A stretch of DNA of 64,000 nucleotides from Candidatus Uhrbacteria bacterium RIFCSPLOWO2_01_FULL_47_25 (lineage in GTDB: Bacteria > Patescibacteriota > Patescibacteriia > GWA2-46-9), in assembly GCA_001791325.1 (NCBI GenBank), contig MGEK01000023.1:4405-68404 (forward strand), written 5' to 3'. This document shows, piece by piece, positions 7,373 to 57,389 of this stretch (positions within the stretch are counted from its first letter, which is position 1; each line of letters opens with the position of its first letter). The notes under the pieces are model-generated. The model did no database searches and was not told where the DNA came from. It saw nothing but the letters and a program-made list of their open reading frames with translations. The position numbers and the translations under genes were made by a program.

Positions 7373-7510
7373 ACCCCGTTAGAAGTCCTAAGAAGATAAA
7401 ATTCCTTTAAGAATTTTATCTTCTATGGCAGCAACGATGCTTAATAGATTCATAGACCGTATCATTGCCTAAGATACATTAATTATACTATGTCAGACTT
7501 CTAATGGGGT
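7373..7510. repeat. TIR element copy A (15-bp terminal inverted repeats CCCCGTTAGAAGTCC / GACTTCTAATGGGGT; internal hairpin AGAAGATAAAATTC-loop-GAATTTTATCTTCT)
   Basis: Seen directly; TIR ends 1 nt before the ATG of the sigma factor gene; distal TIR flanked by a 10-bp direct repeat AATTATACTA (7481-7490, 7511-7520). Confidence 0.8.
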
Positions 7511-7861
7511 AATTATACTACACTTTAACCATGTTTTTATTTCATCAAATGAAAGAGGCCGGCCGTTATCCAAACAACGGTCGGCCCCTGCTGTGTTTCA
7601 CAGCACCACTGCCAGCCCCTCGCTGATGGTAAGAGATAGCGCCCCTTGCACTTCATCAAACGCAGGTGATCGATCGAAAACAAACTCAAGCCGCACCACT
7701 CCTCCAACTCGGAACGACCTAAGAGAAGTAATGTTGATCCCCTTGGCAAGGAAAACACCGACTTTTAATTAATCCTTCAACCGTCTGCCGCTTTTATTCC
7801 ATTTCCGATAGAAACACGGGTGATAGCTATAATGACAACACCCCTTTCTTCTTTTGGGCTA

Positions 7862-8758
7862 CTACCTCCTGATCATCCTTGAAATTGGTATTTCAATGAC
7901 GTCTCTGGCGCCGCGCCGTAACACTTCAAGAAAAGTATCGTTTACTTCTCTCTTGGACACCACGGCACTGACAGACACGAATGCTCCTCCCGCCAGGCCT
8001 GCCACTGTTGGACTCTCTAGGGCCCGCAGACAGCCGGTGATTTCCTCAAGCTGCTGACGAGGAACATTCATCACTAGCATGACGTAACCGCGGGCCTCAA
8101 TCACTCCGAGAAGCAAACGCTTTAGATCCTGAGCCAATTTCGCCAACTTGGAATTTTTGACAATGTCGGTCTTGGCGATCATCACGGTTTGCGACTCCAT
8201 GATCACCCCAATGATCTTAAGGTTATTGGCCTGAAGCGAGGCACCTGTTTCAGTCAAGCACACTCCATACGGGGCAAGTTCCGGCACCATCGCCTCTGTT
8301 GAGCCAGCCGTAAAGCGCACCCGAACACGCTTGCCGCTTGTATCAAACAACTGCCGGGTGAGGTTAGGGTACTCGCTCAATACGAGAACATCATCTAGCA
8401 CATCCCCTACTCCACGACAAGGATTGTCAGCATACGTTACCAAAACAACGCGCGTCGGACCATCGGTAGATCTGCTGTATGACAACATTGTCAACTCCTC
8501 AACACGACCCCCACTCTCCCTGACGCAATCCTGTCCGCAAATGCCGAGGTCAAAACTACCTTGCTCTACCGCCCAGGGAATTTCCTGCGGGCGCATTAAA
8601 ACCACTTCTTCAATCATGGAACCACTAACGGTTCCGGTGCAACGGCGCGGCGATACGGTGATCGCCAAATCTGCCTGCGCGAACAACTCTAACGTCTTCT
8701 TTTCCAGGCTGCCGTTGGGTAGCGCGAGACGCAGCGCGTTTTCGTTCTTCTTGGTCAT
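7862..8758 (-). CDS. hisG: ATP phosphoribosyltransferase, long form (HisG)
   Basis: Collinear similarity to E. coli HisG (LRLALP.GSL, DLGI.G, ETGASL.AN.L, C-terminal regulatory domain); AAGGAGG SD 5 nt upstream of the ATG. Confidence 0.8.
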   Translation of the reverse strand: MTKKNENALRLALPNGSLEKKTLELFAQADLAITVSPRRCTGTVSGSMIEEVVLMRPQEIPWAVEQGSFDLGICGQDCVRESGGRVEELTMLSYSRSTDGPTRVVLVTYADNPCRGVGDVLDDVLVLSEYPNLTRQLFDTSGKRVRVRFTAGSTEAMVPELAPYGVCLTETGASLQANNLKIIGVIMESQTVMIAKTDIVKNSKLAKLAQDLKRLLLGVIEARGYVMLVMNVPRQQLEEITGCLRALESPTVAGLAGGAFVSVSAVVSKREVNDTFLEVLRRGARDVIEIPISRMIRR

Positions 8759-8887
8759 TTTTCCTCCTTTATGTTTTCTCTGTTGCTGCGGTTATACCAA
8801 TTAAACTAACCACCATTTTTATACCTGCCACTGTGCTTTTATGTTTGGCCGCCTCCTTTTTGTCAAAGAGCAAATTCTTCTCCAAGA

Positions 8888-8912
8888 AACAAAAAACCCT
8901 TCCGGAGAAGGG
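8888..8912 (-). terminator. Rho-independent terminator-like hairpin (CCCTTCCGGAGAAGGG + U-run on minus strand)
   Basis: Perfect 6-bp GC stem followed on the minus strand by UUUUUUGUUU; lies in a ~700 bp gap without credible ORFs. Confidence 0.5.
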
Positions 8913-9410
8913 ATCGATCGTGGTGTTGTTGATTTATGTAAAAAAGTAGATTCAAATAAAATTAACCACAGCCAATCTCTTCTCCGAAGAGGTTGCTGTG
9001 ATGATAAGTCTGATTTTGGACCAATGTAACCATAATGCAATCATTGTAATTTAATGATTATTTTCTGTCAAGCGGCGGCATATAACAGCCCTGCCACCTT
9101 CTGTCGCAATTGCGACAAAAGGTGGTGATAAAACCAGCCCCGCTTGGCGAGGCTGATAATCCTGCAACGCAGTGATGGAATGTTTGAACTCTAGCAAGCG
9201 TTAATTTGTCTTTTAACGTTCCAGCTCCTCGTTGGCGACGATCTGTACTTTAGCGTTAATGGTGGAGCCCCACGGGTTTACCCATGTCACCTCTCCACAC
9301 CTTCTCGCGCATTCATCTACCCCCCGCCGCGGCGGGGGGCTTTCTGCGAAGGAGGGTAAATTACTACAGTACTTTGCCATCGACAGCCCCCAGCACGATA
9401 ATAGACCATG

Positions 9411-9445
9411 CATAAAGCCCCCGCCATGGGCGGGGGCTTTATGGA
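9411..9445 (-). terminator. GC-rich hairpin 20 nt downstream of HU stop (AAAGCCCCCGCC-ATGG-GCGGGGGCTTT)
   Basis: 12-bp perfect stem; the U-tail is partly inside the stem, so an intrinsic-terminator function is uncertain. Confidence 0.4.
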
Positions 9446-9464
9446 GTTTTTAAAGCTTTAAAAA

Positions 9465-9746
9465 CTAAAGTACTGCCTCTTTGGCGGCCTTGGCCACACG
9501 GAATTTGACTACAGTTTTGGCTGGAATCTGAATTTCCGCCCCAGTAGCAGGATTTCGTCCCATGCGGGCTTTGCGGTTAACCTTGACAAGCTTACCAATA
9601 CCCGGAACCACAAACTCGCCGTTGCGCTTGACCTCTTGATAGGCAAGAGTGGTCATTTCCTCCATTAAGGTAGCTACCTCTTTCTTGGCCACACCCACCT
9701 TACTGGCCAGCGCCTCAATAATCTGCGCCTTTGTCATTTTAGCCAT
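9465..9746 (-). CDS. hup: DNA-binding protein HU
   Basis: Full-length HU/IHF family signature (GFGKF-like arm RNPATGAEIQIPA). Confidence 0.9.
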   Translation of the reverse strand: MAKMTKAQIIEALASKVGVAKKEVATLMEEMTTLAYQEVKRNGEFVVPGIGKLVKVNRKARMGRNPATGAEIQIPAKTVVKFRVAKAAKEAVL

Positions 9747-10130
9747 ACTATAAATTTAAAGAATTAAATGAAGCCACTGGCTTCACCCCGCCAAGGGCGG
9801 GGTTTATTAAATCCATATCGCTTCATCCCTACGCTCACGCGCAGGATATTCGCGGGGATTTAATAAAATGGTACGACCTTTATAATGTTAATAACATATT
9901 TAATACTAAGGAAAAGTATACACGAGAGCCACTAATAGGGCAACACCCCCCGGACAGGACCAAATTCTAAGCTCTAAGTACGAATTTCTAAACAAATTCC
10001 AAGTCCCAAATTCTAATAACTCCAATAAGTTTATAATTTGTGATTTCGGATTTGTGATTTGCTTAGCCTGCCTGCCGCGGGCAGGTATTTAGAGATTAGG
10101 CATTCGAAATTACAACAAAAACCAACATTC

Positions 10131-10817
10131 TCACTCTTTATAACTGCGCGGGGAAACCACTACCACATACTCACCCGGCGGAGGATTAGACGACAGCCGA
10201 GCGGCCAATGATATGGCCGAACCGCGATACAGGGTTTCAAATTGCTTGGTCAGCTCACGCGCGACGAGTATCAACCGCTCTGGATCGCGCTCGGACAAGG
10301 CCGTCAAGGCCTTGACTATGCGGTGCGGCGATTCATAAAAGACGACGCTACCTGAAGTCGCGGCAACTTGATTAAAAAAATTTTGGCGCCCCTTCTTATG
10401 CGGCGGAAATCCCATAAATGTAAATTCGTCCATCGGAAAACCGCTGACCGACGCGGCCACTACCAAAGCGCACGGCCCGGGAACGGGCACGACGCGCAGC
10501 TCTTCGCCAAAACGCCGCATGGCTTCGGCAACTAGTTTGCCGCCCGGATCGTTTATGCCGGGCGTGCCAGCGTCACTAACTAAGGCCATGTCATGTTTAA
10601 CCAATAAATCAAGAATGGACTTCAGGCGCGCCAACGAAGTATGGTGGTGATAAGAAATCAGTTGAGGCGAAATACCAAGATGGGACATCAAGATTCTTGT
10701 TCGTCTTGTATCTTCAGACAAAACAATAGGCACACTTGAAAGCACTTGCCGCGCTCGCTCGCTAATATCTTTTAAATTACCAATAGGAGTAGCAACGATG
10801 TAAAGCGTGAAAGCCAT
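10131..10817 (-). CDS. rsmI: 16S rRNA (cytidine1402-2'-O)-methyltransferase RsmI (tetrapyrrole methylase fold)
   Basis: LYIVATPIGNLKDIS N-terminal motif and overall length typical of RsmI. Confidence 0.8.
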   Translation of the reverse strand: MAFTLYIVATPIGNLKDISERARQVLSSVPIVLSEDTRRTRILMSHLGISPQLISYHHHTSLARLKSILDLLVKHDMALVSDAGTPGINDPGGKLVAEAMRRFGEELRVVPVPGPCALVVAASVSGFPMDEFTFMGFPPHKKGRQNFFNQVAATSGSVVFYESPHRIVKALTALSERDPERLILVARELTKQFETLYRGSAISLAARLSSNPPPGEYVVVVSPRSYKE

Positions 10818-10872
10818 AAGCTATAAGCCGTAAAACAATAAAATCAAAAAGGCAAAAGTACAAGTTCAAGGT

Positions 10873-10932
10873 CAAAAGCTTTTGAATTTTGCATTGTAAT
10901 TTTGACTTCTAACTTTTGAATTTTGACTTCAA
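10873..10932. repeat. 60-bp repeat copy 1 (CAAAAGCTTTTGAATTTTGCATTGTAATTTTGACTTCTAACTTTTGAATTTTGACTTCAA)
   Basis: Near-identical to 11448-11507; overlaps the stop codon and last 7 codons of gene 10909..11403. Confidence 0.85.
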
Positions 10933-11403
10933 CCGGCGCCTGTATATCTCTAGATAAGCCAACACCAGCAAACTGTAGTTGACTATCATAAATGTCGGAT
11001 CGGCCCAATTAATGGCGTTTACTTTCCATGATGAGAGGGGAAACAAGAAAGGTGTCGGAAAAAATTCGTAAGTGTGCGTACCAATATCAATCAAAATATG
11101 CAGACCCCAGGCGGCAAGCGGCCACCAAATTTTACCCGAACGCCATAGCGCCACTAAGCCAAAAACGACTAAAAAAATTACGGCACTATGTGTGTAATTG
11201 TATATAAAAGAAACGTACAATGGTATGGATTCTACCTCCGGACGGCCAACGCCAAAAGTTCCAAATAAAATTCTGGAGATCATAAACGGACCAAAAGAAA
11301 ATAAATCAGGGGCCACGCCAAAAAATATCGCCCACCACCGATCAGCCGCGCGCTGTCGCTGATAAATAACATTGGCCCAAAGTCCATGAGCGAGAGTGTC
11401 CAT
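10909..11403 (-). CDS. hypothetical polytopic membrane protein
   Basis: 4-5 TM helices; C-terminal LKSKFKS tail encoded by the 60-bp repeat. Confidence 0.5.
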   Translation of the reverse strand: MDTLAHGLWANVIYQRQRAADRWWAIFFGVAPDLFSFGPFMISRILFGTFGVGRPEVESIPLYVSFIYNYTHSAVIFLVVFGLVALWRSGKIWWPLAAWGLHILIDIGTHTYEFFPTPFLFPLSSWKVNAINWADPTFMIVNYSLLVLAYLEIYRRRLKSKFKS

Positions 11404-11447
11404 GACAATAATTCAAAAGTTAAAATGTAAAAGGCAAAAGTGTAAGT

Positions 11448-11507
11448 CAAAAGCTTTTAAATTTTGCATTGTAATTTTGACTTTTAACTTTTGAATTCTG
11501 ATTTCAA
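11448..11507. repeat. 60-bp repeat copy 2
   Basis: 55/60 identity with 10873-10932; overlaps the stop codon and last 7 codons of trxB. Confidence 0.85.
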
Positions 11508-12470
11508 ATTCTCAAGGTATTCTTCGGCTTCCATGGCCGCGGCACAGCCCCGACCGGCCGCAGTTACGGCCTGGCGGTATTTTTGATCCTCAACATCGCC
11601 AGCCACAAATACTCCGGCGATGTTCGTATGCACGCCGTCAGGACTGATAATATAGCCTGCTTCGTCAAGACCAAGCTCTCCACGAAATGGTTCAGTATTG
11701 GGTTTGTGTCCGATAGCGACGAAGACTCCTTGACAATTAATCGTTTTAATCTCGCCTGTTGTTATGTTTTTAAGACGCACCCCGGAAACCATGCTGGCGC
11801 CCAAAACTTCAGTAACTTCCATTGGCACACACCAAAATATCTTAGAGTTGGCTCGGGCCCTATCTTGAAGAATTTGCTGGGCGCGAAAGGACTCCCTCCG
11901 ATGAACTATCGTAACTTGACTGGCCAGCTTGGCTAAATAAATAGCCTCCCGCATAGAGCTGTCTCCCCCGCCCACCACAACCACTTCCTTATTCTTGAAA
12001 AAATAACCATCGCAAACAGCGCAACTGGATACGCCATGCCCTATTAGGCGCTGCTCTGATGGCAATCCTAACCAACGGGCGCTGGCGCCGGTGGCCACAA
12101 TAACGCTCTGCGCTTTCAGTTCCTGGTCGTGCATTGAAACAGTAAAAGGGCGCTCTTTGAAATTCACAGCCACAACACTATCACCAATAAAACTAGTACC
12201 AAATCGTTCCGCCTGACGCTTCATCCGGTCCATTAATTCAGGACCTTGCAATCCTTCAGGGAAGCCGGGGAAATCTTCAACATCAGTAGTCAATGTTAAT
12301 TGGCCACCCTCTTCATGTCCGGTAATGACCAGAGGCGACAAACTAGACCGCGCCGCATAAATAGCGGCGGTTAAGCCGGCGGGTCCAGAACCAATGATAA
12401 TTAATTTATAAACTTCGTTGACCATAATATTAACATACCACGAATATAGAGCCAGTCCATTATCAAACAA
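11484..12470 (-). CDS. trxB: thioredoxin-disulfide reductase
   Basis: FAD motif GSGPAGLTAAIYAAR, redox-active CAVCDG, NADPH GGGDSS motif. Confidence 0.9.
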   Translation of the reverse strand: MFDNGLALYSWYVNIMVNEVYKLIIIGSGPAGLTAAIYAARSSLSPLVITGHEEGGQLTLTTDVEDFPGFPEGLQGPELMDRMKRQAERFGTSFIGDSVVAVNFKERPFTVSMHDQELKAQSVIVATGASARWLGLPSEQRLIGHGVSSCAVCDGYFFKNKEVVVVGGGDSSMREAIYLAKLASQVTIVHRRESFRAQQILQDRARANSKIFWCVPMEVTEVLGASMVSGVRLKNITTGEIKTINCQGVFVAIGHKPNTEPFRGELGLDEAGYIISPDGVHTNIAGVFVAGDVEDQKYRQAVTAAGRGCAAAMEAEEYLENLKSEFKS

Positions 12471-12494
12471 GCTTACGTTCGGTCTTGATACTGA

Positions 12495-15151: not shown

Positions 15152-15308
15152 CCCCGTTAGAAGTCCCGCCCATTCGGCGGGCAGGCCTCAGAAGACAAAA
15201 TTCTCTTAAGAATTTTGTCTTCTATGGTAACTAGAATATTTAGTTGGTTGGTAGATTGTATCATATATAAAAGATTGGATATTGTGCTAAGTCAGACTTC
15301 TAACGGGG
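15152..15308. repeat. TIR element copy B (CCCCGTTAGAAGTCC ... GACTTCTAACGGGG)
   Basis: Perfect 14/15-bp TIRs; internal hairpin AGAAGACAAAATTC-loop-GAATTTTGTCTTCT; ends 1 nt before the ATG of gene 13507..15150. Confidence 0.85.
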
Positions 15309-15490
15309 CACAACATTGATGGAATATAGAATGTGGAATATGGAATATAGGTATTAATTGTTGGGGAATTCTGATTTTCATAAACTTGATTCTAAATTCT
15401 ATATTCAATATTCTGCATACAACACATAGTATATCATACCTTCACGCTTTCATTATACATCATAACATGGTCAAGACACTAAATGATTGA

Positions 15491-18729: not shown

Positions 18730-18832
18730 GAAGAATATAAAATATGGAATATTGAATATATTACTTGCTATGTAGAATCAATCGTTGTAGCTCACGTTCT
18801 ATATTCCAAATTCTATATTCAATATTCTAATC
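18730..18832. repeat. TATATTC(A/C)A(T/A)ATTCT repeat cluster upstream of mreC (inverted and direct copies)
   Basis: GGAATATTGAATATA at 18745-18759 and TTCTATATTCCAAATTCTATATTCAATATTCT at 18797-18828; same motif at 15321-15351, 15393-15414 and 52411-52446. Confidence 0.7.
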
Positions 18833-18855
18833 AAAGGCAATCTTCTAGCGGGGTT

Positions 18856-18991
18856 CCCCCGTTAGAGGGTCTGGGCGGAAAAAGTTTTAGCTAAAACTTT
18901 TTCCGCTAACTTAAACAGAACAGTATTAATAATAAGACGGCCAATGGTCATAATAGTAGGTAACCAAGATAATGACGACCCTCTAACGGGG
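18856..18991. repeat. TIR element copy F with co-varied termini (CCCCCGTTAGAGGGTC ... GACCCTCTAACGGGG) and internal 15-bp perfect hairpin GCGGAAAAAGTTTTA-GC-TAAAACTTTTTCCGC
   Basis: Termini differ from the consensus (AAGTCC to AGGGTC) but stay mutually complementary; the right TIR supplies the TAG stop and last 3 codons (EPR) of mreB. Confidence 0.75.
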
Positions 18992-21375: not shown

Positions 21376-21479
21376 AATACGAAATATTCTTACGAAAATA
21401 CGAAAATGTACGAAAAAATGGCTTTTTCTCACGTTGAAACGATATTTCGTATATTCGTAATATTTCGTACGTTCGTATG
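21376..21479. promoter_or_regulatory. array of direct and inverted TACGAAA / TTTCGTA heptamers immediately upstream of proS
   Basis: GAATACGAAATATTCTTACGAAAATACGAAAATGTACGAAAAA ... ATATTTCGTATATTCGTAATATTTCGTACG; same motif family upstream of three other genes. Confidence 0.5.
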
Positions 21480-26725: not shown

Positions 26726-27832
26726 TTACTTCTTGCCCGTCCGGGCAACCCCAAGATATTGTGTGGTGGGCACCTTAGGATCAACTAACAATATAGTATG
26801 CGCTCCCGGCACCGGCAAGGTCTTGGTTTCCCAAGTTTTCCCCGCATCCTGTGAACGATAAAGCGTCCTATCCGTAGTGTAATAAAGCTCCGTGGAATTA
26901 TTGGGATTAAGAGCGACCGCGAAAATATCAACAGAAGATGGAGGGGTCAACAACGGCAAGGCCGACCAAGTAGACCCTCCGTCCGTTGTCCTCACAAGAC
27001 CATACTTTGAAGCAGTAATAACCGTATCGGGTCGCATAGGATCCACTACCAAGTCGTTGATGGACAACGCCCCGGGAAATTTTTTTAGATCTTCACTCAT
27101 GTCCTGCCAGGTAGCGCCGCTGTCTTCGCTACGCCAAAATCCACGTCCTTCTATGATGAGATAAATGGTACTCGCCTTTAAAGCATGTTTCACAATACGA
27201 TTAATACGCCCTTGTAATCGGGCTATCGTTTCCCAACTTTTGCCGGCATCAGAACTTTTAAGCACCTCTCCAGTAGTCAGACCAGCATAAATCATCGCCG
27301 GATTCTCCTGATTGATGGCTAAGGTTAACACTTTCTCCTGCAATCGTGTGTCATAATACAACTGATCCCAAAACCGTCCACAATCAGTGGTACGTAAAAT
27401 ACGATTTGCTGTGGCAATATAAATAGTGCAACGCATGCTCGGAGCGCTGGACACGGCTATGGCATTGATATCGCCCTGGCGAATTGGACCAGACGGCCAC
27501 CAACTATCACCTCCATCATAGGAATAGTAAAGACCCTGCCCTTGACTTCCCAAATAAAGGGTACGGCTGTCCGTCGGGTCTAAAATTAATGTCTGCACGT
27601 TAATATTATCAAGGGTCGGACGAGCGGCGGGATTGGCAGATAGAATGCTGTTTCTGGTCACCCAATTATCACCACGATCTATGGATTTATAAATACCGAC
27701 CGGCGGTGGCGGTGGACCTTGTTTCTGACCACCAAATCCAATAAAGTCCGTGATAGAACATCCGCTAAGAAACAAGGTAAGGGGCAAAGCGGCGAATATA
27801 AGGCCCCGATGAATGGTTGTTTTAGTAATCAT
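26726..27832 (-). CDS. BNR/Asp-box repeat lipoprotein (Ycf48-like beta-propeller)
   Basis: Lipobox LSGC; six S-x-D-x-G-x-T/S-W repeats. Confidence 0.7.
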   Translation of the reverse strand: MITKTTIHRGLIFAALPLTLFLSGCSITDFIGFGGQKQGPPPPPVGIYKSIDRGDNWVTRNSILSANPAARPTLDNINVQTLILDPTDSRTLYLGSQGQGLYYSYDGGDSWWPSGPIRQGDINAIAVSSAPSMRCTIYIATANRILRTTDCGRFWDQLYYDTRLQEKVLTLAINQENPAMIYAGLTTGEVLKSSDAGKSWETIARLQGRINRIVKHALKASTIYLIIEGRGFWRSEDSGATWQDMSEDLKKFPGALSINDLVVDPMRPDTVITASKYGLVRTTDGGSTWSALPLLTPPSSVDIFAVALNPNNSTELYYTTDRTLYRSQDAGKTWETKTLPVPGAHTILLVDPKVPTTQYLGVARTGKK

Positions 27833-27857
27833 AAGGGTAAATCTTAAATCCTAAACC

Positions 27858-27940
27858 CATACGAAAGTACGAAATCGGAACGGGCAACTTTCGTACCTTT
27901 CGTATTGTTTCGTAATTTCGTAAGAATATTTCGTTAAGCA
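27858..27940. promoter_or_regulatory. TACGAAA / TTTCGTA heptamer array upstream of the BNR-lipoprotein gene
   Basis: CATACGAAAGTACGAAATCGG...TTTCGTACCTTTCGTATTGTTTCGTAATTTCGTAAGAATATTTCGT. Confidence 0.5.
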
Positions 27941-27999
27941 TAATTGATCGTTGTATTATTTAAAAATTAGAAATTATATTTATGGATTTTCTAACGGGG

Positions 28000-29003: not shown

Positions 29004-29050
29004 TGAATATTCTTACGAAAATACGAAAAGATACGAAAGTACGAAAGAAT
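29004..29050. promoter_or_regulatory. TACGAAA heptamer array in the divergent holB / archease-rtcB promoter region
   Basis: GAATATTCTTACGAAAATACGAAAAGATACGAAAGTACGAAAGAA; same ATTCTTACGAAAATACGAAAA core as upstream of proS. Confidence 0.5.
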
Positions 29051-29124: not shown

Positions 29125-29532
29125 ATGCCTCACCAAATACTACCACATACTGCCGATGTTAGACTGCTCGTGGAAAACGAAACTGTAGAGGGACTTTTTA
29201 TTGAAGCACTTCAGGGCATGACAGAGATAATGAAGCCTATTGAAGAGATCAATGCCCGGCCGGCGAGCCGCCGCATTTCCCTTAAGGCTGCTGATAGCAC
29301 TGCCCTACTCGTTGACTTTCTTAATGAAGTGCTTTCAATGACTGAAATAAATCATGAAACTTACACTGATATTGTTTGGCAACACTTTTCAGAGCGTCGC
29401 TTAACGGTAAAACTAATCGGCAGAAGCGTCGCTGGTTTTGCCAAAAATATCAAGGCCGCCACCTATCACGAAGCGGACATCAGAAAAAACCCAAAGGGAA
29501 ATTTTGAAACGGTTATTATTTTTGATATTTAA
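29125..29532 (+). CDS. archease (RtcB activator)
   Basis: N-terminal PHTADV motif and about 135 aa length; immediately upstream of rtcB. Confidence 0.8.
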   Translation: MPHQILPHTADVRLLVENETVEGLFIEALQGMTEIMKPIEEINARPASRRISLKAADSTALLVDFLNEVLSMTEINHETYTDIVWQHFSERRLTVKLIGRSVAGFAKNIKAATYHEADIRKNPKGNFETVIIFDI

Positions 29533-29670
29533 CCCCGTTAGAAGTCCGACTTAATATCACCTTAAGAATCTCTTATCTATACCACAATCCATGAATACAC
29601 TAAACACCATAATTACCACCGCAGATAAAATTCTCTTAAGAATTTTATCTGCCAAGGACTTCTAACGGGG
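29533..29670. repeat. TIR element copy C, filling the entire archease-rtcB intergenic space
   Basis: Left TIR starts the nt after the archease TAA; right TIR GGACTTCTAACGGGG ends 1 nt before the rtcB ATG; internal hairpin GCAGATAAAATTC-loop-GAATTTTATCTGC. Confidence 0.85.
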
Positions 29671-41063: not shown

Positions 41064-41129
41064 TTAATTTAAGGTTAGCTGAAAATAAAATAATATAACT
41101 AACTACGTGCTCAACTTCGTTCCTATATA

Positions 41130-41183
41130 CCCCGCTAGAAGTCCTCGGAAGATAAAATTCTTGAGGGGATTTTATCTTCGGCG
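41130..41183. repeat. truncated TIR element D (one terminus CCCCGCTAGAAGTCC plus canonical internal hairpin)
   Basis: CGGAAGATAAAAT-loop-ATTTTATCTTCG adjacent to the TIR; no partner TIR found; 66 nt upstream of gene 40509..41063. Confidence 0.6.
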
Positions 41184-41247
41184 GTAATTATAGTAATGAA
41201 CCTCCGCGCAGCAAGACCGCGGGGAATAATCAAGTTTAAAATCCCGA

Positions 41248-42372
41248 TTACCTAATAAGTATATACCCGCCAGGCACTCCTTTTTTAGATAAAACAATCT
41301 GCCACAATTGATTTTTTCTGGCCCGAAACGATCCGGCGCAAGCCAATAGATAATATCTCCACATCCGATAAAATCTTTCGTCATAATTTGATTTTATGCT
41401 ATCCCAATTGTCTTCAAAATTTTTATGCCAAGCCATAAGGGTCTTATCATAATCAGCCCCAAAATTGTGCCAATCCTCCATCACGAACAATCCCTCAATT
41501 GCTTTGCTGATCTGTCGAATTGAGGGAAGCATGGAGTTTGGAAATATATATTTTTCAATCCACGGATCTGTGCCGCGCACCGAACGGTTGACTCCTATCG
41601 TTTGCAATAAAAATAAACCATCGTCTTTAAGCACATTGTGCACGACCTTCATAAATGTACGATAATTTTTATATCCTACGTGCTCAAACATTCCTAAAGA
41701 CACCACATGGTTAAACTTTTCATTGATATCCCGATAATCCTGAAGCCGCGTTTCTGCGGAAAGATTTTTGTACAATGTATCAGCCAATTCTTTTTGCTCT
41801 TTTGAGACAGTAATTCCAAGCGCGCTGACTCCGTATTTTTCGGCGACATACCCGATAAAGCTTCCCCAGCCGGAACCGATATCAAGTATTTTCTGTCCGC
41901 GTTTTAGACCAATTTTTCTGCAAACGAGACCTAATTTTGCTTCTTGCGCATCATCGAGTCCACCAGCCGGTGGATTACCGCCCCAATATCCGCAGGTATA
42001 AGTTAAACGCTTATCAAGCATCGTGCGATATAGATCGTTGCCAATGTCATAATGCCGCTTCCCTATCTCAAAGGATTTTGATTTTCTTCCAGCATTCAAG
42101 ATGGAATTCCAAACAAATTCGGATATTACGTTCCAATTGTATCTAACTCGACTGTCAATATCGGCTCCGAGAACCTTATCGAAAAACTGATCAAGCCTTT
42201 CGCAATCCCACCAGCCGTCCATATACGACTCTCCAAGCCCCAATGATCCCTGTCGTAATATGCGGCTGTAAAAATCCGCGTTGTGTATCTGAAGATCGTA
42301 CGGATTATTTCCGTTTATTGTAATGCCTACGCTTGCAAGCAACGACTTGATAATTTCTTTACTCTTCTTCAT
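41248..42372 (-). CDS. cfa: cyclopropane-fatty-acyl-phospholipid synthase
   Basis: SAM-binding ILDIGSGWG motif and CFA synthase length. Confidence 0.9.
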   Translation of the reverse strand: MKKSKEIIKSLLASVGITINGNNPYDLQIHNADFYSRILRQGSLGLGESYMDGWWDCERLDQFFDKVLGADIDSRVRYNWNVISEFVWNSILNAGRKSKSFEIGKRHYDIGNDLYRTMLDKRLTYTCGYWGGNPPAGGLDDAQEAKLGLVCRKIGLKRGQKILDIGSGWGSFIGYVAEKYGVSALGITVSKEQKELADTLYKNLSAETRLQDYRDINEKFNHVVSLGMFEHVGYKNYRTFMKVVHNVLKDDGLFLLQTIGVNRSVRGTDPWIEKYIFPNSMLPSIRQISKAIEGLFVMEDWHNFGADYDKTLMAWHKNFEDNWDSIKSNYDERFYRMWRYYLLACAGSFRARKNQLWQIVLSKKGVPGGYILIR

Positions 42373-49472: not shown

Positions 49473-50018
49473 TTAACGGGAGGACTTAATCTCCGCAACG
49501 TTTTCTGCATCACATGCTTGAATAGTAATAATACCTGCGGCGCTCTTGGTTAATACATAACCAGTTTTGGCTGCCGTATATGTTGTTGCCGCGGGCGGTG
49601 CTATAGGAATACTGCCGAGATAACCTTTGCCTACCAACCCATTTGCACCGTCGTCTAAATTAATGCAATCTGCGTCTGCGGCAATAGTAACATCTGTACA
49701 CGCTATAGCATTTGCCCCCACATCATCGCAACCCGTAGCGGACGTCCCAATCATATAAGCAGTGTTATCCAATTTAAGTGGATCAGCAATAGCGGCTAAA
49801 TAAGTCCCACCATTATCAACCTGATTGACTTTAATTGCGCTCAAAACTGCCGATATATCTGTTCGCCTTCTGGCATCACGCGCGTCTTGAAAGCGTGTTA
49901 ACGGATTCAAAGCCACAAAGGTGGCGGCCGCGAGAACGGCGATAATACCGATGACAATCAAGAGTTCAATTAATGTAAATCCTTGAAGTCGCGACCTTAT
50001 TTTTTTGACTACTCCCAT
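49473..50018 (-). CDS. pilA: type IV major pilin (start at internal Met MGVVKK)
   Basis: Class III signal RLQG/FTLIELLIVIGIIAVLAA; small secreted protein. Confidence 0.8.
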   Translation of the reverse strand: MGVVKKIRSRLQGFTLIELLIVIGIIAVLAAATFVALNPLTRFQDARDARRRTDISAVLSAIKVNQVDNGGTYLAAIADPLKLDNTAYMIGTSATGCDDVGANAIACTDVTIAADADCINLDDGANGLVGKGYLGSIPIAPPAATTYTAAKTGYVLTKSAAGIITIQACDAENVAEIKSSR

Positions 50019-50059
50019 ATTTTTAAAAAAATTAAGTAATAAAATTGTGAAAATTTTTG

Positions 50060-51805: not shown

Positions 51806-51961
51806 AACTCAATAATTTCTAAATCCTAAGCTCTAATTTTTAAACAAATCACAATATCTAAATCACAAATAACAAACAGTTTGGAACATTGGGATTTCGT
51901 GCTTAGTTATTGTTTAGAGATTAGAAATTAGATATTAGAGATTACCATGGTGGGGTGTTAT

Positions 51962-52438
51962 TTAATCGCTTCTTTCTTCCCAAGAATTAATGGTGACAAT
52001 ATTTAAACTGCCTGGAATCTGTGCGACCACGGTTATAACGGCCTGAATTTTTTTATAATAACTGCCGCTCTGCCCAAGTATTGTCAGGCGGCGCTGGTTG
52101 CCCCCTAAATCCACAACACTTATTGTACACGAACCATTGACAACTGGAAAACTCGGGGATCCTGTATAGCCCGCATCTAAACGCAAACGCCGCATAGCCT
52201 CTTCCAGACACCCATCCGCGACGGAAAATGCTTCACCGCCCTTTTGATATGTATAACCAAGCTCAAGCTCGCCCAAGCCAAGCAGTGAAGCGCTAGTAGC
52301 CATAGTTAAAGCAACCACGCCAATGATTAAAACCGTTAAGAGGGCAGAGAAGCCAACAGGGTGTTCAGGCGTTAGCTTATTAGCTTGTAGCTTTTTAGAC
52401 CCTGACCGATTTTCTATATTCAATATTCTATATTCCAT
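51962..52438 (-). CDS. pseudopilin-like protein
   Basis: PVG/FSALLTVLIIGVVAL prepilin-like hydrophobic N-terminus; N-terminal codons of the model lie in a TATATTC repeat. Confidence 0.5.
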   Translation of the reverse strand: MEYRILNIENRSGSKKLQANKLTPEHPVGFSALLTVLIIGVVALTMATSASLLGLGELELGYTYQKGGEAFSVADGCLEEAMRRLRLDAGYTGSPSFPVVNGSCTISVVDLGGNQRRLTILGQSGSYYKKIQAVITVVAQIPGSLNIVTINSWEERSD

Positions 52439-52444
52439 ATTCTT

Positions 52445-53044
52445 TCACTGCCTAACACTCACGGCCATACGCAGACTTTGTGAATAATTATATTCTACAT
52501 CATTGGAATCATTTTTGTAGGCCACGGTAATTTCCACTCCGATATTTTCGCGCGCATTACCGCCGCCGTAATTACGAAACACCAAATTAGTAGCTTCAAC
52601 CCTACTGCCGGTAATAGACACGGGCTGACTGGCGCCTTCGCTAATTTGAATCGCGCCGTTTGCGTCTACATCAATCACTGTTGGATTTTTTAGAACATCC
52701 GCCATGACGAGCGACAACCTGCCTGGACTGCTGTCAAAAACCGAATCACCGGCATTAACTCCCGTGGCCGCCTTAATGCGCTGGCTAATAATCTCAACAG
52801 CTATACGAGCATTGGCCTGCACTTCCTGCGCCACATAAGTTTTATTGCGCACCCCGGCCACAGACAAACTATATGAGATAAAAGTCACGGCCACGCCGCC
52901 AATAACGACAATATAAATGAGCAGCTCTATGAGAGTGAAGGCTCTAGGCATTAGCTTATTAGCTTGCTCGCCCCGTGCAGTCCCGCCTGGCGGGACGAAG
53001 CGGGGTAGCTTTTTAGATAAAAATTTAAATGTTTTATCAATCAT
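52445..53044 (-). CDS. type IV pilin-like protein
   Basis: AFTLIELLIYIVVIG prepilin N-terminus preceded by a 40-aa extension containing a GC-rich hairpin insertion. Confidence 0.6.
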   Translation of the reverse strand: MIDKTFKFLSKKLPRFVPPGGTARGEQANKLMPRAFTLIELLIYIVVIGGVAVTFISYSLSVAGVRNKTYVAQEVQANARIAVEIISQRIKAATGVNAGDSVFDSSPGRLSLVMADVLKNPTVIDVDANGAIQISEGASQPVSITGSRVEATNLVFRNYGGGNARENIGVEITVAYKNDSNDVEYNYSQSLRMAVSVRQ

Positions 53045-53085
53045 AAATGCAAAATGTAAAAAGCTAAGAAGCTAATGCCTAATTC

Positions 53086-55194
53086 CTATCTATAGTTGAT
53101 CCTTAATTCATTCAAGATCGGCGTGGCCGTACCGTCGCCGATCAGTTCCACCCGATACTGCGCCCAGCGATTGTTATTAAGGGCGATTGGCGCTAAGGCT
53201 CCGCGAGGAATCGTAAAATATGTGCCTGCTCCAGTAGCGCCGTACCATGACGCGGTTGAGAGTGCCGCTAAATCCAAAGTGGTACGAATCTGAAGCTTGA
53301 CAGCACAGCCAACACAACCTCCTGGTGTTTCATCCCACTCAACAATTTGCCAAACTCTATTAACGCTAGCGTCAAAAGCTGATGAGCGTAACCAGCCGCT
53401 TGAGGCGAATGGTCCTCCGGAACCCTGAACCTCGCAATCAACAATTACCTCATCAAGAATCACCTGTTGTGTTCCACTGCCAACAAGAAACGCGCGAAAC
53501 TTCAGCCCGTCAGCGGTCACTGGAAATTCGGAAATATTACTATTGACCACCACGGCGGTATTATAATTTGTTGAACCTGCTACTACCCAGCCACTATTCC
53601 AATATTGCCACGATGCACCATTATCCTTGGAAAGCTGGTAATAAATCTGACCACCGTTTTTTGTAGCTACTTCATTGAAGCTTGTCCAACTATCTATCGG
53701 TGAAGGCTGATAGGCCGCATTTGGAGTGACCCATGGACCATCATTGGCATACGGCTGACCATGCGGCGAGTTGGGCGGTGTAAAAGGAGCAATCCAGCGA
53801 GCAACGCTGGAAACTCGCACTTCATCAAGGCGTCCATAAAAACTTGAGGTACCACCTTCGCTTAACCGAAACGGCGCATTGCCATTTTGAATACCAGCGC
53901 TATAGGAGACACGGGCTGCTGCAGACACCCCTCCGACAAACAAATATAAAAACGATCCATCATACACAGCGGCTACATGGCGCCACTGGTTCAATGGAAT
54001 GATCCCGGCACTGGATGTGATAGACCCCAGATTCAAGCCATTCCTAACCTCAAAACTTAATGAACCATTAATATTGACATACAAACGATAAGATCTGCTT
54101 GCCCCACTGGTCCACTTAGTAACAATAAAATCGCTTCCCGAAGAATAGGCCGTCTTGTTCACCCACGCATCAATAGTTAATGGCCCCATAATATCAAGAC
54201 CTTGCTGTGAGTTGTCTAAAATAGATCCAAAATCCGCACTGCTTTTAAATCGCACGGCGGTACCGAATTTGCCAGCTTGCCCATACAGCGGAGTGCCGTT
54301 CACTGTCAGATTGTTGTTATGGCCGGAGGCATCAATAAAATTTCCGCTCGCCTCGTCTAAGTGCCAAAGACCACGCGTGGTGGCTGGATTAATCAACTGC
54401 CCACCCATATCTTTAAGACGGGCTACGTTGTTATTGCCAGCGTCAACCTCAATCTTAGCAGGATCGCTCAAAGTGTAATCTGAAGCAGTGCTAAAATCCC
54501 AAGTTTTTGATGGACAAACTGGCGGTGGCCCAATGGACTTCAGCTTTACTTCACCGGCTGTTGATACGTCAATATTACCATCGTCAGCTTCATAACGCCT
54601 TGAGTCAGACCATATTGCCTGACCTGATCCGCCTGACCAATCGGTCTGGGTCCACTCGCGCGAATCCCAATTTGTAAGATAAGACGTGCGCTCAACATAA
54701 TTAGCCGCGCCTTGGCCGGGTGACCAATTAACTTTGACCTTAACCTGTTTGCTATGCACATCAATATATGAACTAGGGCAATCAGCAATGTCATTGCTCG
54801 CGTTTCGGCAAACATCGCTAAAAGTAATAGTGCGTGTGTACTTATTTTCTATTAACTCCGACGAAGCCGAACTCAACTCCCACTGGCCAGCATTGACAGA
54901 AACTTTGGCTGGAGAGTATATCAATTTATTCCAAGCCCGATTGGCAATAGCTTTAACCGCTTCTATGCCCTCCTCCGCCAGCGCTCCGGCCTGCGTCTGC
55001 TCGCCGCCGCGGCTTAAGCCCATAAAACTTCCAGCCGCTAAAGTTACCACAGCCGTGGCGAGTAGCGCGAAAATACCCAGAGCCACCACTACCTCTAAAA
55101 GACTCTGACCGCGATTGTCAAAAATTAGTTTATTGGGCATTGGCTGATTAGACCACGCGCAGAAATTGTGATAACGCCTTCGTTTATTCAACAT
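53086..55194 (-). CDS. large (about 700 aa) minor pilin with concanavalin/LamG-like domain (putative tip adhesin)
   Basis: Pseudopilin signal NRG/QSLLEVVVALGIFALLA; large beta-rich C-terminal region. Confidence 0.6.
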   Translation of the reverse strand: MLNKRRRYHNFCAWSNQPMPNKLIFDNRGQSLLEVVVALGIFALLATAVVTLAAGSFMGLSRGGEQTQAGALAEEGIEAVKAIANRAWNKLIYSPAKVSVNAGQWELSSASSELIENKYTRTITFSDVCRNASNDIADCPSSYIDVHSKQVKVKVNWSPGQGAANYVERTSYLTNWDSREWTQTDWSGGSGQAIWSDSRRYEADDGNIDVSTAGEVKLKSIGPPPVCPSKTWDFSTASDYTLSDPAKIEVDAGNNNVARLKDMGGQLINPATTRGLWHLDEASGNFIDASGHNNNLTVNGTPLYGQAGKFGTAVRFKSSADFGSILDNSQQGLDIMGPLTIDAWVNKTAYSSGSDFIVTKWTSGASRSYRLYVNINGSLSFEVRNGLNLGSITSSAGIIPLNQWRHVAAVYDGSFLYLFVGGVSAAARVSYSAGIQNGNAPFRLSEGGTSSFYGRLDEVRVSSVARWIAPFTPPNSPHGQPYANDGPWVTPNAAYQPSPIDSWTSFNEVATKNGGQIYYQLSKDNGASWQYWNSGWVVAGSTNYNTAVVVNSNISEFPVTADGLKFRAFLVGSGTQQVILDEVIVDCEVQGSGGPFASSGWLRSSAFDASVNRVWQIVEWDETPGGCVGCAVKLQIRTTLDLAALSTASWYGATGAGTYFTIPRGALAPIALNNNRWAQYRVELIGDGTATPILNELRINYR

Positions 55195-55227
55195 ATCCTA
55201 ATAAGCTAAGAAGCTAACGCCTAATTC

Positions 55228-55734
55228 CTAGTCAGTGACCATGCCTAATGAATTAATGGTAATGACAGTACTTTTGCCAAGAGCATTGGTTAAAGTAATA
55301 TCTCCTGTCGTACTCGGCTCGCCCAGGCCTCGAGAAAAATTAATATCATCGCCCGTGAGAGTTGTTAACAAAGACAGTGAATCTTCCAAAGTGACCGTGC
55401 GATCAAAATCGGTGTCTTCAGCGCCGCGACCTAAATAAGCGGGCCCTTGATATAAAATAAATCTATCCGGACCATTTGGGTCAATATCAAAAAATACGCC
55501 ATGCGGCTTGTTATTCACTCTGGCCAGACTGCGCGCCTGAGCCGTGCGAACCGTTTGAACGATTTCCGCTGTCCGTTCGTTCAAATAACTTGAAGATTGA
55601 AAATTTCCATAAATAGGAATGGCGACGGCCATTAGTAAAAGCGTAATACTAACAACAATTAGTAACTCAATGATTGAGAAGCCGGTTTTGTTTTGAAAAA
55701 GCCGATCGTGATATCTTATGAGTAGCTGCCTCAT
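55228..55734 (-). CDS. pseudopilin (GspH/FimT-like), start at internal Met
   Basis: KTG/FSIIELLIVVSITL prepilin signal. Confidence 0.6.
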   Translation of the reverse strand: MRQLLIRYHDRLFQNKTGFSIIELLIVVSITLLLMAVAIPIYGNFQSSSYLNERTAEIVQTVRTAQARSLARVNNKPHGVFFDIDPNGPDRFILYQGPAYLGRGAEDTDFDRTVTLEDSLSLLTTLTGDDINFSRGLGEPSTTGDITLTNALGKSTVITINSLGMVTD

Positions 55735-55741
55735 CAAACCG

Positions 55742-56830
55742 CTAGCGGCCAATTCTACCGGTAATGTCATATATCGGAGTAATAATAGAAATGGCTAAAA
55801 ATCCAACCGCCAAACCCATCACCAAAAGCAAGGCTGGTTCAATGGCCGCCGACAATGATTTTGTCGCAGTATCTACCTCAACCTCATAAAAATTGGCAAG
55901 ATAAAAAAGAGTTTCCTCATAGCGCCCTGATTCTTCGCCAACTTTAATCATTCTCGTCACTAACGGCGGAAATATATGGCCTACACGTTCTAGGCTCTCG
56001 GAAAGTTTCGCCCCCCGGCCAACGTCTCGGCTAATCTGTTCAAGAGCACGCCGATAATAATAGTTGCGAGTTGTTTCGGCGGTAATATGAAGAGCTGAAT
56101 CAATGGTTACACCGCTTTTTAAAAGCATTCCCAAGGTGCGGCAGAAACGAGCTAAATTCACATTGCGGCTAATTTTTTTAACTATTGGCGTATGGAGTAA
56201 TAAATAATGAGTGAATGGTTGCGTGAATGTTCGGCGAGATAGCCAGCTCGTCAAAATTATGAATAGCGCCAAACTGACCAAAGCAATTTCTCCCCGCTGT
56301 TCCATAAAACGCGAGAATTTAATCAGCATTCTGGTGGAGAAAGGTAGGTCGGCTTTCAAGCCCTCAAAAAGAGGAATGATTTTGGGCAAAACCATAAATG
56401 ACATCACTGCTCCTAAAATCACGGCCACCACCAGAACAATGGCCGGATAAACCATGGCTCCGCGCACTTTGCCAATAAGCTCTTTTTCTTTTTCCAATTG
56501 CTCCGCCACGTTCTCCAGACTTTCAGAGAGCGTTCCGGAAGTCTCGCCGGCATAAACGGCATTAACAAAAAAACCGGAAAAAACTTTAGGATATTCGGCC
56601 AGAGATGAAGAAAGAGTGTGACCAGACTCAACTGATTTTAAAATGTTTGCCAACACTCTACTCAATTTCCCATCGGCTGAATCACGCGCCACGGACAAAG
56701 CCTCGGTAATAGAAAGACCCGATTTCAGCATCACCGCCAGATGTTTAGCCGTGACTGCCTTGGCGGTAAGACCAACGCCTCCGATGGTCAGCGTAGCTCC
56801 TAATAATTTCTTCCCAGATAGTCTGGTCAT
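55742..56830 (-). CDS. pilC: type IV pilus inner-membrane platform protein PilC (T2SSF)
   Basis: Two T2SSF-domain repeats, 3 TM. Confidence 0.85.
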   Translation of the reverse strand: MTRLSGKKLLGATLTIGGVGLTAKAVTAKHLAVMLKSGLSITEALSVARDSADGKLSRVLANILKSVESGHTLSSSLAEYPKVFSGFFVNAVYAGETSGTLSESLENVAEQLEKEKELIGKVRGAMVYPAIVLVVAVILGAVMSFMVLPKIIPLFEGLKADLPFSTRMLIKFSRFMEQRGEIALVSLALFIILTSWLSRRTFTQPFTHYLLLHTPIVKKISRNVNLARFCRTLGMLLKSGVTIDSALHITAETTRNYYYRRALEQISRDVGRGAKLSESLERVGHIFPPLVTRMIKVGEESGRYEETLFYLANFYEVEVDTATKSLSAAIEPALLLVMGLAVGFLAISIITPIYDITGRIGR

Positions 56831-56844
56831 ATATTGACCATTCT

Positions 56845-57261
56845 TTATGAACGCGCCGCGCCAATGTCCTCCTGTTTCTTTTGTTTCATAGCCAAATATT
56901 TACGTACTTCCACGCCAAGTTTTGTGATAGGAAAATCGGTTTTGACTAAATAACCGACGGCTCCGAGGTCCAAACCTGTTTTGATATCTGAATCCTGACC
57001 TAAATTGGTTAAAATAACTACCGGAATATTCTTGGTATGAGCGTGAAGTTTCATTTCACTTAAAATATCAAAGCCGTTTTTGTGCGGCAGAACGATATCA
57101 AGAATAACTAAATCCGGCTTCTCGTTCATAACCTTATTCAATCCTTCATCACCGGAAATCGCCATGCTAACCTCAAACCCCTCGCGTCGCAACTGGTCAG
57201 TATATAATTTATTCAGGAATTTATCGTCTTCAATAACTAAAATTTTGGCCGTATTTTCCAT
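56845..57261 (-). CDS. single-domain response regulator (CheY-like receiver)
   Basis: Receiver-domain signature (KILVIEDD... conserved Asp and Lys); ATG 1 nt after TIR element E. Confidence 0.85.
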   Translation of the reverse strand: MENTAKILVIEDDKFLNKLYTDQLRREGFEVSMAISGDEGLNKVMNEKPDLVILDIVLPHKNGFDILSEMKLHAHTKNIPVVILTNLGQDSDIKTGLDLGAVGYLVKTDFPITKLGVEVRKYLAMKQKKQEDIGAARS

Positions 57262-57262
57262 A

Positions 57263-57389
57263 CCCCATTAGAAGGCCTTCCCAGCCCCGCCTAGCGGGAC
57301 TGATAAGATAAGCGGTTGAATGAATAATAATAGTTACGTTGGCGGTTTATAGAGAGTGGATTAATCATAAAGACGGCCTTCTAACGGGG
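57263..57389. repeat. TIR element copy E with co-varied termini (CCCCATTAGAAGGCC ... GGCCTTCTAACGGGG), filling the HK-RR intergenic space
   Basis: Termini changed AAGTCC to AAGGCC on both arms, keeping complementarity; ends 1 nt before the response-regulator ATG and starts 7 nt after the kinase stop. Confidence 0.8.

Follow-up and report, generated by a model that had tools for sequence, protein, structure and literature searches.

Among the systems described so far, the closest to the elements reported here is Ssn/NTS. Ssn (SsnA) is a site-specific GIY-YIG nuclease of about 94 amino acids (aa) that cuts single-stranded DNA (ssDNA) beside a hairpin repeat which also flanks its own gene (Chenal et al. 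2025, PMC11893778). The authors of that study remark on the layout NTS-ssnA-NTS as being similar to an insertion sequence (IS), and their paper makes no mention of target-site duplications (TSDs), start codons, MITEs (miniature inverted-repeat transposable elements) or the candidate phyla radiation (CPR). We analyse here a 64-kb stretch of DNA from Candidatus Uhrbacteria (Parcubacteria, CPR; Rifle groundwater), hereafter the window, in which a repeat with the termini CCCCGTTAGAAGTC...GACTTCTAACGGGG is present as six bounded copies and three solo ends, and, from other loci, a family of short coding units bounded by the same ends. Like Ssn/NTS, this family has a GIY-YIG-only protein of ~93-94 aa and an inverted-repeat motif that brackets the gene and has many dispersed copies beside genes. 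Unlike Ssn/NTS, its repeats coincide exactly with the ends of a discrete 282-bp unit flanked by a 4-bp TSD, its open reading frame (ORF) is translated through the repeats and borrows a host start codon, and its gene is multi-copy and accompanied by non-coding derivatives of 100-160 bp. The repeat sequence is likewise unrelated, and the published SRM motif HGTCWYN(0-2)YYVSBRHN(0-5)WNVSBRGN(0-2)RNCYNB was matched by 0 of 174 elements on either strand.

The repeat family of the window, put forward in a preliminary description made from the letters alone, is real: the 15-mer CCCCGTTAGAAGTCC has 12 matches at up to 3 mismatches against 1.3 expected, a count reached by 0 of 100 shuffles, and its 10-mer core has 15 matches at up to 1 mismatch against 2.5 expected. 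A scan with a terminal 14-mer, covering one genome per species, returned at least 120 loci, each taken as an 8-kb window of its own. Lone matches mean little, because thousands are expected by chance in such a collection; among the matches listed, about 90 loci have two inverted copies of the 14-mer spaced 41-166 bp. These belong mostly to CPR (Saccharibacteria, Nealsonbacteria, Komeilibacteria and others), and also include metagenome-assembled genomes labelled Planctomycetota, Omnitrophota, Elusimicrobia, Nitrospirae and deltaproteobacteria. The ends of these paired loci are alike and their interiors wholly different from one locus to the next. The terminal inverted repeats (TIRs) are 14-19 bp long, with outer 11 nt that are nearly invariant over 150 distinct elements, and 114 of 174 unique elements have a perfect 4-bp TSD on their flanks (shuffle mean 11.4, maximum 22). 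TGAA/TTCA, TTGA/TCAA, TAAA/TTTA and TATG/CATA are the commonest duplications, the first base is T in 44 of the 45 oriented GIY-YIG elements, and targets of the TTGAC type are frequent for short elements in GC-richer genomes. The copies in the window are MITEs, non-autonomous members of a mobile family that is widespread, mainly in CPR, and has the termini CCCCGTTAGAA(N3-4)...(N3-4)TTCTAACGGGG. Their resemblance to MITEs had been noticed in the preliminary description, and is borne out by the TIRs, the family-wide 4-bp TSD, the lack of an ORF, the existence of coding relatives with the same ends, and presence or absence at orthologous sites.

At locus L053 the two ends lie 282 bp apart and the interior is a complete 93-aa GIY-YIG ORF, whose ATG is in the flank, whose residues N-P-V-R-S come from the left repeat and whose stop codon TAA lies in the right repeat. 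Such ORFs are often devoid of a start codon of their own and use a host ATG contained in the duplicated target (ATG AA|C CCC GTT AGA, read as M-N-P-V-R-S). At E <= 1e-5, databases contain 956 homologs of the protein. Among the best 120 of these 956, the repeat-encoded PVRS lies near the N-terminus in 77, with an M-x-PVRS start in 55; 33 are an 86-aa form with its own Met, and 95 have the repeat-encoded C-terminal end D/G-F. A protein-guided scan of metagenome contigs yielded 80 loci with 83 GIY-YIG ORFs, of which 77 are bounded by both repeats as units of 281-285 bp, again with 4-bp duplications. The ORFs are intact, and a median dN/dS of 0.12 indicates purifying selection. PF01541 spans residues 9-74 with no second domain, and the structural model (pLDDT 79) has a GIY-YIG fold closest to the UPF0213 protein BH0048 and to Slx1, a structure-specific nuclease. 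Among proteins of solved structure, its nearest relatives are the UPF0213 proteins BH0048 (E = 6e-6) and EF2693 (E = 5e-3), and a weak similarity in sequence and fold links the protein to the catalytic domain of I-TevI.

Judged by their sequences, the MITEs share their ends with this longer coding element. MITE-size elements and GIY-YIG units occur together on 13 short contig windows, and some ends of 24-26 nt are identical between the two. Over the sub-terminal 33 nt, the hairpin end of the MITEs agrees with the 3' end of the GIY-YIG element at 64% identity, against 12-58% for the other pairs of ends, and the MITEs retain the ends plus about 35 nt resembling the 3' part of that element. Across the 120 loci listed (8-kb windows, exact 14-mer), TSD-flanked termini 420-4000 bp apart enclosed no transposase, a search that a rare IS may have escaped; pairs at this spacing enclosed nothing other than two adjacent small elements.

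The preliminary description had treated the position of the elements, 1 nt before an ATG, as a special rule. It proves to be the mechanical outcome of a 4-bp T-ATG duplication: with T|ATG or A|TGAA as the target, the 3' junction regains a start codon (ATG or GTG) through the duplication, namely GGGG|TATG in the first case and G|TG from GGGG|TGAA in the second. At L121 the junctions read ...ATGAA|CCCC...GGGG|TGAA..., and the stop of the upstream gene is kept (TGA within ATGA); the nuclease ORF begins at the host ATG, and the new start of the host gene is either a right-repeat ATG (MTSNGV-) or G|TG. At L123 the element follows the fifth codon of hsdM and is in frame at either side; the junction at L126 was also read base by base. 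In the spc operon at L050 (2531-2657), a 127-bp MITE occupies the ATGA overlap of rplN and rplX, and the start of rplX is now GTG. The GIY-YIG unit at L138 (2478-2800) lies at a TTGA with two roles, as the stop codon that ends the upstream aminoacyl-tRNA synthetase gene and as the -35 box in a TTGACT-17-TATATT promoter. For GIY-YIG units and MITEs with a TATG duplication, a mini-ORF, ATG-CCC-CGT-TAG, begins in the upstream copy, and the downstream one serves as the host start and lies 6 nt past the TAA of the right repeat.

An element was scored as lying at a start when its junction coincided exactly with the start codon of an ORF that has 60 codons or more. The result was compared with two nulls, the same tetranucleotide anywhere in the same loci and, more strictly, the same tetranucleotide outside ORF interiors. 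GIY-YIG units are at a start in 27 of 64 cases (42%), against 2.5% for the tetranucleotide anywhere (p = 2e-26) and 15% outside ORF interiors (p = 1.5e-7); this enrichment is robust. The corresponding values for MITEs of at least 95 bp are 21/59 (36%), 4.6% (p = 8e-14) and 28% (p = 0.12), and for MITEs below 95 bp 2/51 (4%), 1.4% (not significant) and 7.8% (p = 0.92). Start-codon placement, which the preliminary description had held to exceed what random insertion would give, is real and recurs in other phyla, and the enrichment of MITEs over the stricter null did not stand. The overwhelming start preference of MITEs under the naive null was accordingly dropped, since the stricter one removed its significance. 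Their adjacency to starts is explained, because tetranucleotide preference together with the loss of intragenic insertions suffices. Genes of other CPR genomes with a MITE exactly at their start are rplK, rplX, topA, parB, atpG, a type II secretion system ATPase gene and an RNase H gene; the MITEs at essential-gene starts are found at L050 2531-2657, L006 6181-6312, L051 1165-1298 and 6071-6200, and L036 316-450. Insertion at starts is evidently tolerated, given that copies sit exactly at those of rplK, rplX, topA and atpG.

On aligning the terminal sequences, both arms are seen to have changed together in copies E and F, as had been proposed, and the selection on pairing suggested at the time finds support family-wide. 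The covariation set consists of 150 distinct end pairs, and its counts are of sequences related by descent, not of independent events. Repeat position 1 is C-G in 144 pairs and U-A in 5; position 11 is A-U in 142, G-C in 7 and U-A in 1, and is never unpaired; position 12 is G-C in 94, A-U in 44 and G-U in 7; and position 13 is U-A in 109 and C-G in 29. The presence of several pair types at one position points to repeated events. The observed covariation score was reached by 0 of 500 shuffles, and structures slid by 1-3 columns score far lower. This co-variation of the arms, in which positions 1 and 11-13 are hardly ever unpaired, favours a pairing constraint. RNA folds of the window copies consist of the repeat stem and a sub-terminal hairpin, with z from -5.4 to -12.3 (D, z = -1.8). 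The AT-rich sub-terminal hairpin, described as common to copies A to D and always on the side of the gene, is indeed shared and has compensatory changes between A, B and C; its orientation holds locally only, since family-wide it is distal to the gene in 15 cases and proximal in 13, and uniform within subfamilies. A fixed orientation relative to the gene was therefore rejected as a general property. On the sense strand of oriented GIY-YIG units, G-T mismatches outnumber A-C mismatches by 14 to 5, which is weak evidence. Consensus scans for internal promoters and terminators in the window copies gave results at or below shuffle expectation, and a search for an internal guide in the style of IS605 revealed no internal 4-mer that co-varies with the target.

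Turnover of sites between close relatives indicates recent mobility. Copy C is missing from the archease-rtcB spacer in the relatives L219 and L220. The kinase|regulator junction holds an E-type element in the window (57259-57393) and an F-type element, with a GAGGGTC repeat and an AT hairpin, in the close relative L221 (821-958), with the same TATG duplication in both; either one 4-bp target was hit independently or one element was replaced by another. Tandem elements at L048 and L145 share one duplication copy. Among the orthologous loci of relatives, no clean empty site with a single target copy was recovered.

The best explanation, and one we regard as probable on balance, is that the window copies are MITEs of a TSD-forming GIY-YIG family; we infer further that its nuclease mobilises them in trans and that re-initiation coupled through the stem makes them tolerable. 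The GIY-YIG protein is the candidate mobiliser because the repeat-ORF-repeat unit is the only coding form seen, because its fold is similar to that of Slx1 and UPF0213 proteins, and because Ssn provides a precedent. It may read the conserved outer 11 nt in single-stranded or cruciform DNA, where the two repeats would pair into a stem, and further inwards pairing alone would be required. In the mRNA, the same stem would sequester the 15 nt before the rebuilt start and bring the upstream stop beside it. This stop would be the upstream gene's own (C, L050, L121) or the TAG of the mini-ORF ATG-CCC-CGT-TAG (E). A ribosome terminating there would melt the 5' arm, freeing the 3' arm and the start for re-initiation; for elements lacking an upstream ORF end, the duplicated start codon and the native upstream region could stand in. 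RNase III cleavage of the stem would be an alternative to coupling. Such putative stem-mediated coupling is our preferred reason why insertions at starts are tolerated.

More tentatively, and as a possibility that we would not yet call probable, the 281-285 bp unit may be an autonomous transposon composed of two 14-nt inverted repeats and a 93-aa GIY-YIG gene translated through them. Such a unit would insert in frame at A|TGNN, take over the host start and its ribosome-loading signals, and return a rebuilt start through the TSD and the coupling stem. The MITEs of 40-160 bp, window copies included, would be its non-coding derivatives, using the same mechanism across CPR and neighbouring phyla.

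Several observations weigh against a GIY-YIG mobiliser with stem coupling. A GIY-YIG gene was sought within the 64-kb window and none was found, and a perfect TSD is left at only two of the window copies, D and E. Where a MITE and a GIY-YIG element share a contig, their inner repeat variants often differ. Enzymes of the GIY-YIG type act as hydrolytic nucleases, and none is known to transpose with a TSD, so that host repair or ligation would be needed. Co-variation of the arms can also come from family-level co-evolution with the protein. As to coupling, the start placement of MITEs taken alone is not significant over the stricter null, an upstream ORF ends within 15 nt of the 5' junction in only about half of the elements with a start junction, and a 15-19 bp stem abutting the ATG could equally inhibit translation.

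The elements might instead be ordinary MITEs moved by an unseen conventional DDE transposase (IS1380/piggyBac-like or IS5-like), the GIY-YIG ORF being a passenger in the same frame. Clean 4-bp TSDs with TIRs are a hallmark of cut-and-paste DDE transposition, IS1380/piggyBac-like and IS5-like enzymes make 4-bp duplications and have CC...GG ends, and strand transfer is not known for GIY-YIG nucleases; the inner repeat variants that differ between co-resident MITEs and GIY-YIG elements would suit such an enzyme as well. The 120 loci listed nevertheless contain no TSD-flanked transposase with these termini, and a passenger is hard to reconcile with a unit that is the sole coding form observed, present in hundreds of intact but diverged copies whose frame is built into both repeats, which together make this explanation unlikely. 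We likewise rate as unlikely that the start-site copies are host-selected cis-regulatory RNA modules, whether a coupling or re-initiation stem or an RNase III site releasing an mRNA with a short leader, with mobility being secondary and the MITEs exapted. Elements are also found at -35-like TTGAC sites, past stop codons and in non-genic spacers; their orientation to the gene is not conserved (15 against 13), short members have no start association (2/51), the start enrichment of MITEs loses significance under the stricter null, and relatives manage the same genes without the element. In favour of such modules stand the very stable predicted folds with a start codon abutting the stem, compensatory changes in both the repeat stem and the sub-terminal hairpin, the excess of G-T over A-C mismatches on the sense strand of oriented elements (14 against 5), the persistence of copies at essential-gene starts and within the spc operon, and the occupation of the kinase|regulator site by different subfamilies in two lineages.

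A CPR counterpart of Ssn/NTS, in which the repeats are chromosomal hairpins recognised by a domesticated, site-specific ssDNA nuclease with a modulating role in recombination or DNA uptake, and do not transpose at present, would account for the match in size and single-domain build between the CPR protein and Ssn, itself a single-domain GIY-YIG protein of ~94 aa with inverted-repeat motifs flanking its gene and hundreds of copies scattered near genes (PMC11893778). We consider this very unlikely, as the published SRM motif matches 0 of 174 elements, the gene is multi-copy, diverged and placed in many host contexts each with its own TSD, which is the behaviour of a transposon and not of a single domesticated gene, and site turnover between close relatives speaks for recent mobility. 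That the pattern is a chance repeat or an artefact of start-codon annotation, the latter having been named in the preliminary description as what would undo it, can practically be dismissed. ORF starts in the window were indeed assigned by a mechanical rule, each at the first start codon past a stop. The modal length of RtcB homologs, 481 aa, equals that of the window ORF, and the two relatives L219 and L220 have the same T-ATG-AT context at the rtcB start; the CheY-like receiver domain begins at residue 7 (Pfam), and relatives' sigma factor and receiver genes use the same ATG as those of the window. Homolog lengths, domain positions and shared ATGs thereby confirm the starts, and the 12 matches to the 15-mer against 1.3 expected argue against a chance repeat. 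Overall, the interpretation in the preliminary description is partly supported.

Comparison with better-known mobile elements gives a similarly mixed picture. Correia/CREE of Neisseria, RUP, ERIC and Nezha are, like the elements described here, 40-160 bp long, with TIRs, a TSD, no ORF and a strong predicted hairpin when transcribed, and classical MITEs also lie in or between transcription units and occasionally provide host genes with stops or C-terminal codons. Classical MITE families are attributed to DDE insertion sequences, and Correia duplicates TA. The present family differs from Correia, RUP, ERIC and Nezha in sequence and in its duplication, which is of 4 bp, and its only coding partner is a GIY-YIG nuclease; unlike those of classical MITEs, its termini are conserved across phyla while interiors are wholly different, and its TSD regenerates start codons. 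IS200/IS605 and REP/RAYT likewise involve a small hairpin-recognising nuclease, as we propose here on single-stranded DNA, and massively amplified short palindromic derivatives. Those systems use HUH/Y1 enzymes, produce no TSD, have asymmetric ends and read the target tetranucleotide by an internal guide, whereas a TSD is present here and no internal tetranucleotide co-varies with the target. The piggyBac/IS1380 ends begin CC(C)T.AGA and go with a 4-5 bp duplication; the likeness to them consists in a 4-bp duplication of a T-rich target and in termini that begin CC... and end ...GG. In contrast to that family, no DDE transposase with these ends occurs among the loci listed, and the elements are 5-10 times smaller than its insertion sequences. 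GIY-YIG homing endonuclease genes, both free-standing and intron-encoded (T4 seg/mob, I-TevI), are also selfish genes wedged between host genes and using host expression signals. Homing endonucleases have DNA-binding domains, one cognate site and recombination-dependent homing, with neither TIRs nor TSD; the elements studied here differ in occupying many unrelated sites, each with its own TSD.

Other candidate identities were examined and abandoned. A TA duplication of the IS630 type was dropped as many copies show a 4-bp TSD. A cyanobacterial MITE (Nezha and similar) was dropped as the host is Candidatus Uhrbacteria and the literature searched holds no matching sequence. Rfam at the gathering threshold gave 0 matches over the whole window, blastn of copy A against PLSDB gave no match, and IMG/VR contained no paired termini; on the latter two nulls and a tblastn of the GIY-YIG protein against plasmids, which returned one weak and irrelevant match, an origin from plasmids or phages was rejected. 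The searched literature contained neither a description of these elements nor a match for their sequence, and the 0.28-kb GIY-YIG-encoding element family is apparently undescribed so far.

Should the GIY-YIG protein prove to mobilise these elements, it would represent a new enzymatic class for prokaryotic DNA transposition. The unit, at about 0.28 kb, would lower the minimum size of autonomous mobile elements; every other known autonomous transposon would be far larger, and no earlier prokaryotic one is known to rely on a GIY-YIG nuclease. Its design shows how a selfish gene can live, without lethal effect, in the packed, translationally coupled operons of very small genomes, where the host start is borrowed and then rebuilt. 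It also provides a testable model of re-initiation across a long-range stem, independent of the Shine-Dalgarno (SD) sequence, in organisms that hardly use SD. The protein may, like the Ssn enzymes, be a compact sequence- and structure-specific nuclease of biotechnological interest.

Gene calling in CPR is distorted by the elements through spurious N-terminal extensions (MTSNGV-), GTG starts, fused M-x-PVRS peptides and C-termini supplied by repeats, and repeat-encoded peptides probably contaminate CPR protein annotations. At L121 (3272) and L123 (3285), gene callers begin the host gene at the right-repeat ATG, which results in the artificial-looking MTSNGV- N-terminus, and elsewhere N-terminal codons of the host are fused to the nuclease (MSTNI-NPVRS...). 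One paper reports that GIY-YIG genes look horizontally transferred out of Patescibacteria and has no more on the topic.

The bounded copies in the window are 127-157 bp long and none has an ORF of its own; B, C and E keep the limits first assigned to them, and those of A and F were corrected. By Pfam, A neighbours the gene for an ECF-like sigma factor, C those for archease and RtcB, E those for a HisKA/HATPase kinase and a CheY-like receiver, and F that for MreB. The juxtaposition of repeat, T and ATG reported for copies A, B, C and E, before the genes for the sigma factor, the 547-aa protein, RtcB and the CheY-like regulator, was recovered at all four. Copy A (7374-7509, minus strand, 136 bp) adjoins with its hairpin end the T and ATG (7372-7370) of the ECF-like sigma factor gene; its TSD is lost (ATTA / TATG), and the copy is common to the relatives L222 and L223. 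An 11-bp sequence, TAGTATAATTA, with a -10-like TATAAT, occurs just outside its distal repeat and again just inside (window 7480-7521). In L223 (1-30) there is a single TAGTATAATTA and no distal repeat, as if ~30 bp had been deleted or duplicated between direct repeats. Copy B (15152-15308, minus strand, 157 bp) adjoins in the same way the T and ATG (15150-15148) of the 547-aa ORF, which has no Pfam match. It has an additional GC hairpin (CCCGCC...GGCGGG) and a TSD agreeing at 3 of 4 positions (TGTG / TATG), and the architecture of locus L099 is near-identical to it.

Copy C (29533-29670, plus strand, 138 bp) lies in the archease-rtcB spacer. As had been stated, it fills this spacer: its first nucleotide directly follows the archease stop TAA (29530-29532) and its last one precedes the rtcB ATG (29672) by 1 nt; the TSD is lost (TTAA / TATG). 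Copy E (57263-57389, minus strand, 127 bp) has the TIR variant GAAGGCC/GGCCTTC, a GC hairpin and a perfect TSD, CATA (57259-57262 and 57390-57393), which is TATG on the gene strand. It sits between the stop of the histidine kinase gene and the ATG of the response-regulator gene (57261-57259), and its upstream TSD copy opens the mini-ORF ATG CCC CGT TAG. It does not fill the whole spacer as first thought, for 7 nt (CATATCC) remain before the kinase stop.

Copy F (18857-18991, minus strand, 135 bp) has the TIR variant GAGGGTC/GACCCTC, and an F-type element is also present in the relative L221. Its terminus (18983-18991) supplies the stop of mreB, TAG (18985-18983), as described, together with the last two codons (P, R) rather than three. 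A further solo terminus, ATCTTCTAGCGGGG, not recorded before, lies 3 nt from copy F (18840-18853, minus strand). It would encode the same E-P-R-stop ending of mreB, and is the remnant of an older element at the same site. Copy D (41130-41259, minus strand, 130 bp), taken at first for a half copy, is a decayed full copy with a recognisable right end, GATTACCTAATAAG, and a perfect TATA TSD (41126-41129 and 41260-41263). Its degenerate right terminus (41246-41259) gives the last codons and the stop (...L-I-R-stop) of a gene similar to cyclopropane-fatty-acid synthase (CMAS-like methyltransferase). The C-termini of MreB (...E-P-R-stop) and of the CMAS-like protein have thus been remodelled, since element termini supply their last codons and stops. 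The two solo termini already reported were confirmed with slightly altered bounds. One (27985-27999, minus strand) directly follows the stop (28002-28000) of the gene for DNA polymerase III delta'; the other, TCTAACGGGG (213-222, minus strand), is preceded by a GC-rich hairpin sequence and has no convincing partner end.

The four genes that follow copies A, B, C and E are without an SD sequence, as the preliminary description had pointed out, and this is no special property of theirs. Among the 55 window ORFs of at least 150 aa, an SD-like motif is strong in 3 and absent in 46, and the regions upstream of long ORFs are AT-rich and often end in T-ATG. The lack of SD at the four genes is therefore uninformative, being the norm in this genome, and translation initiation in this Uhrbacteria genome appears to be largely SD-independent.

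Two further kinds of repeat were observed in the window. A second, unrelated family, with the motifs TACGAAA/TTTCGTA, is found at 27835-27930 (minus strand), upstream of the ORF at 26726-27832. In L219 (1381-1500) and L220 (1-50), an element of this family occupies the archease-rtcB spacer where the window has copy C, and short arrays of its motifs also lie at 21442-21477 and 29014-29047. Intergenic tandem arrays of heptamers (ATGGAAT, TTCTATA, TTTTGAA, TTAGAGA) are present at 15319-15348, 18797-18829, 52412-52443, 10880-10926 and 51914-51944, and two of them directly adjoin copies B and F.

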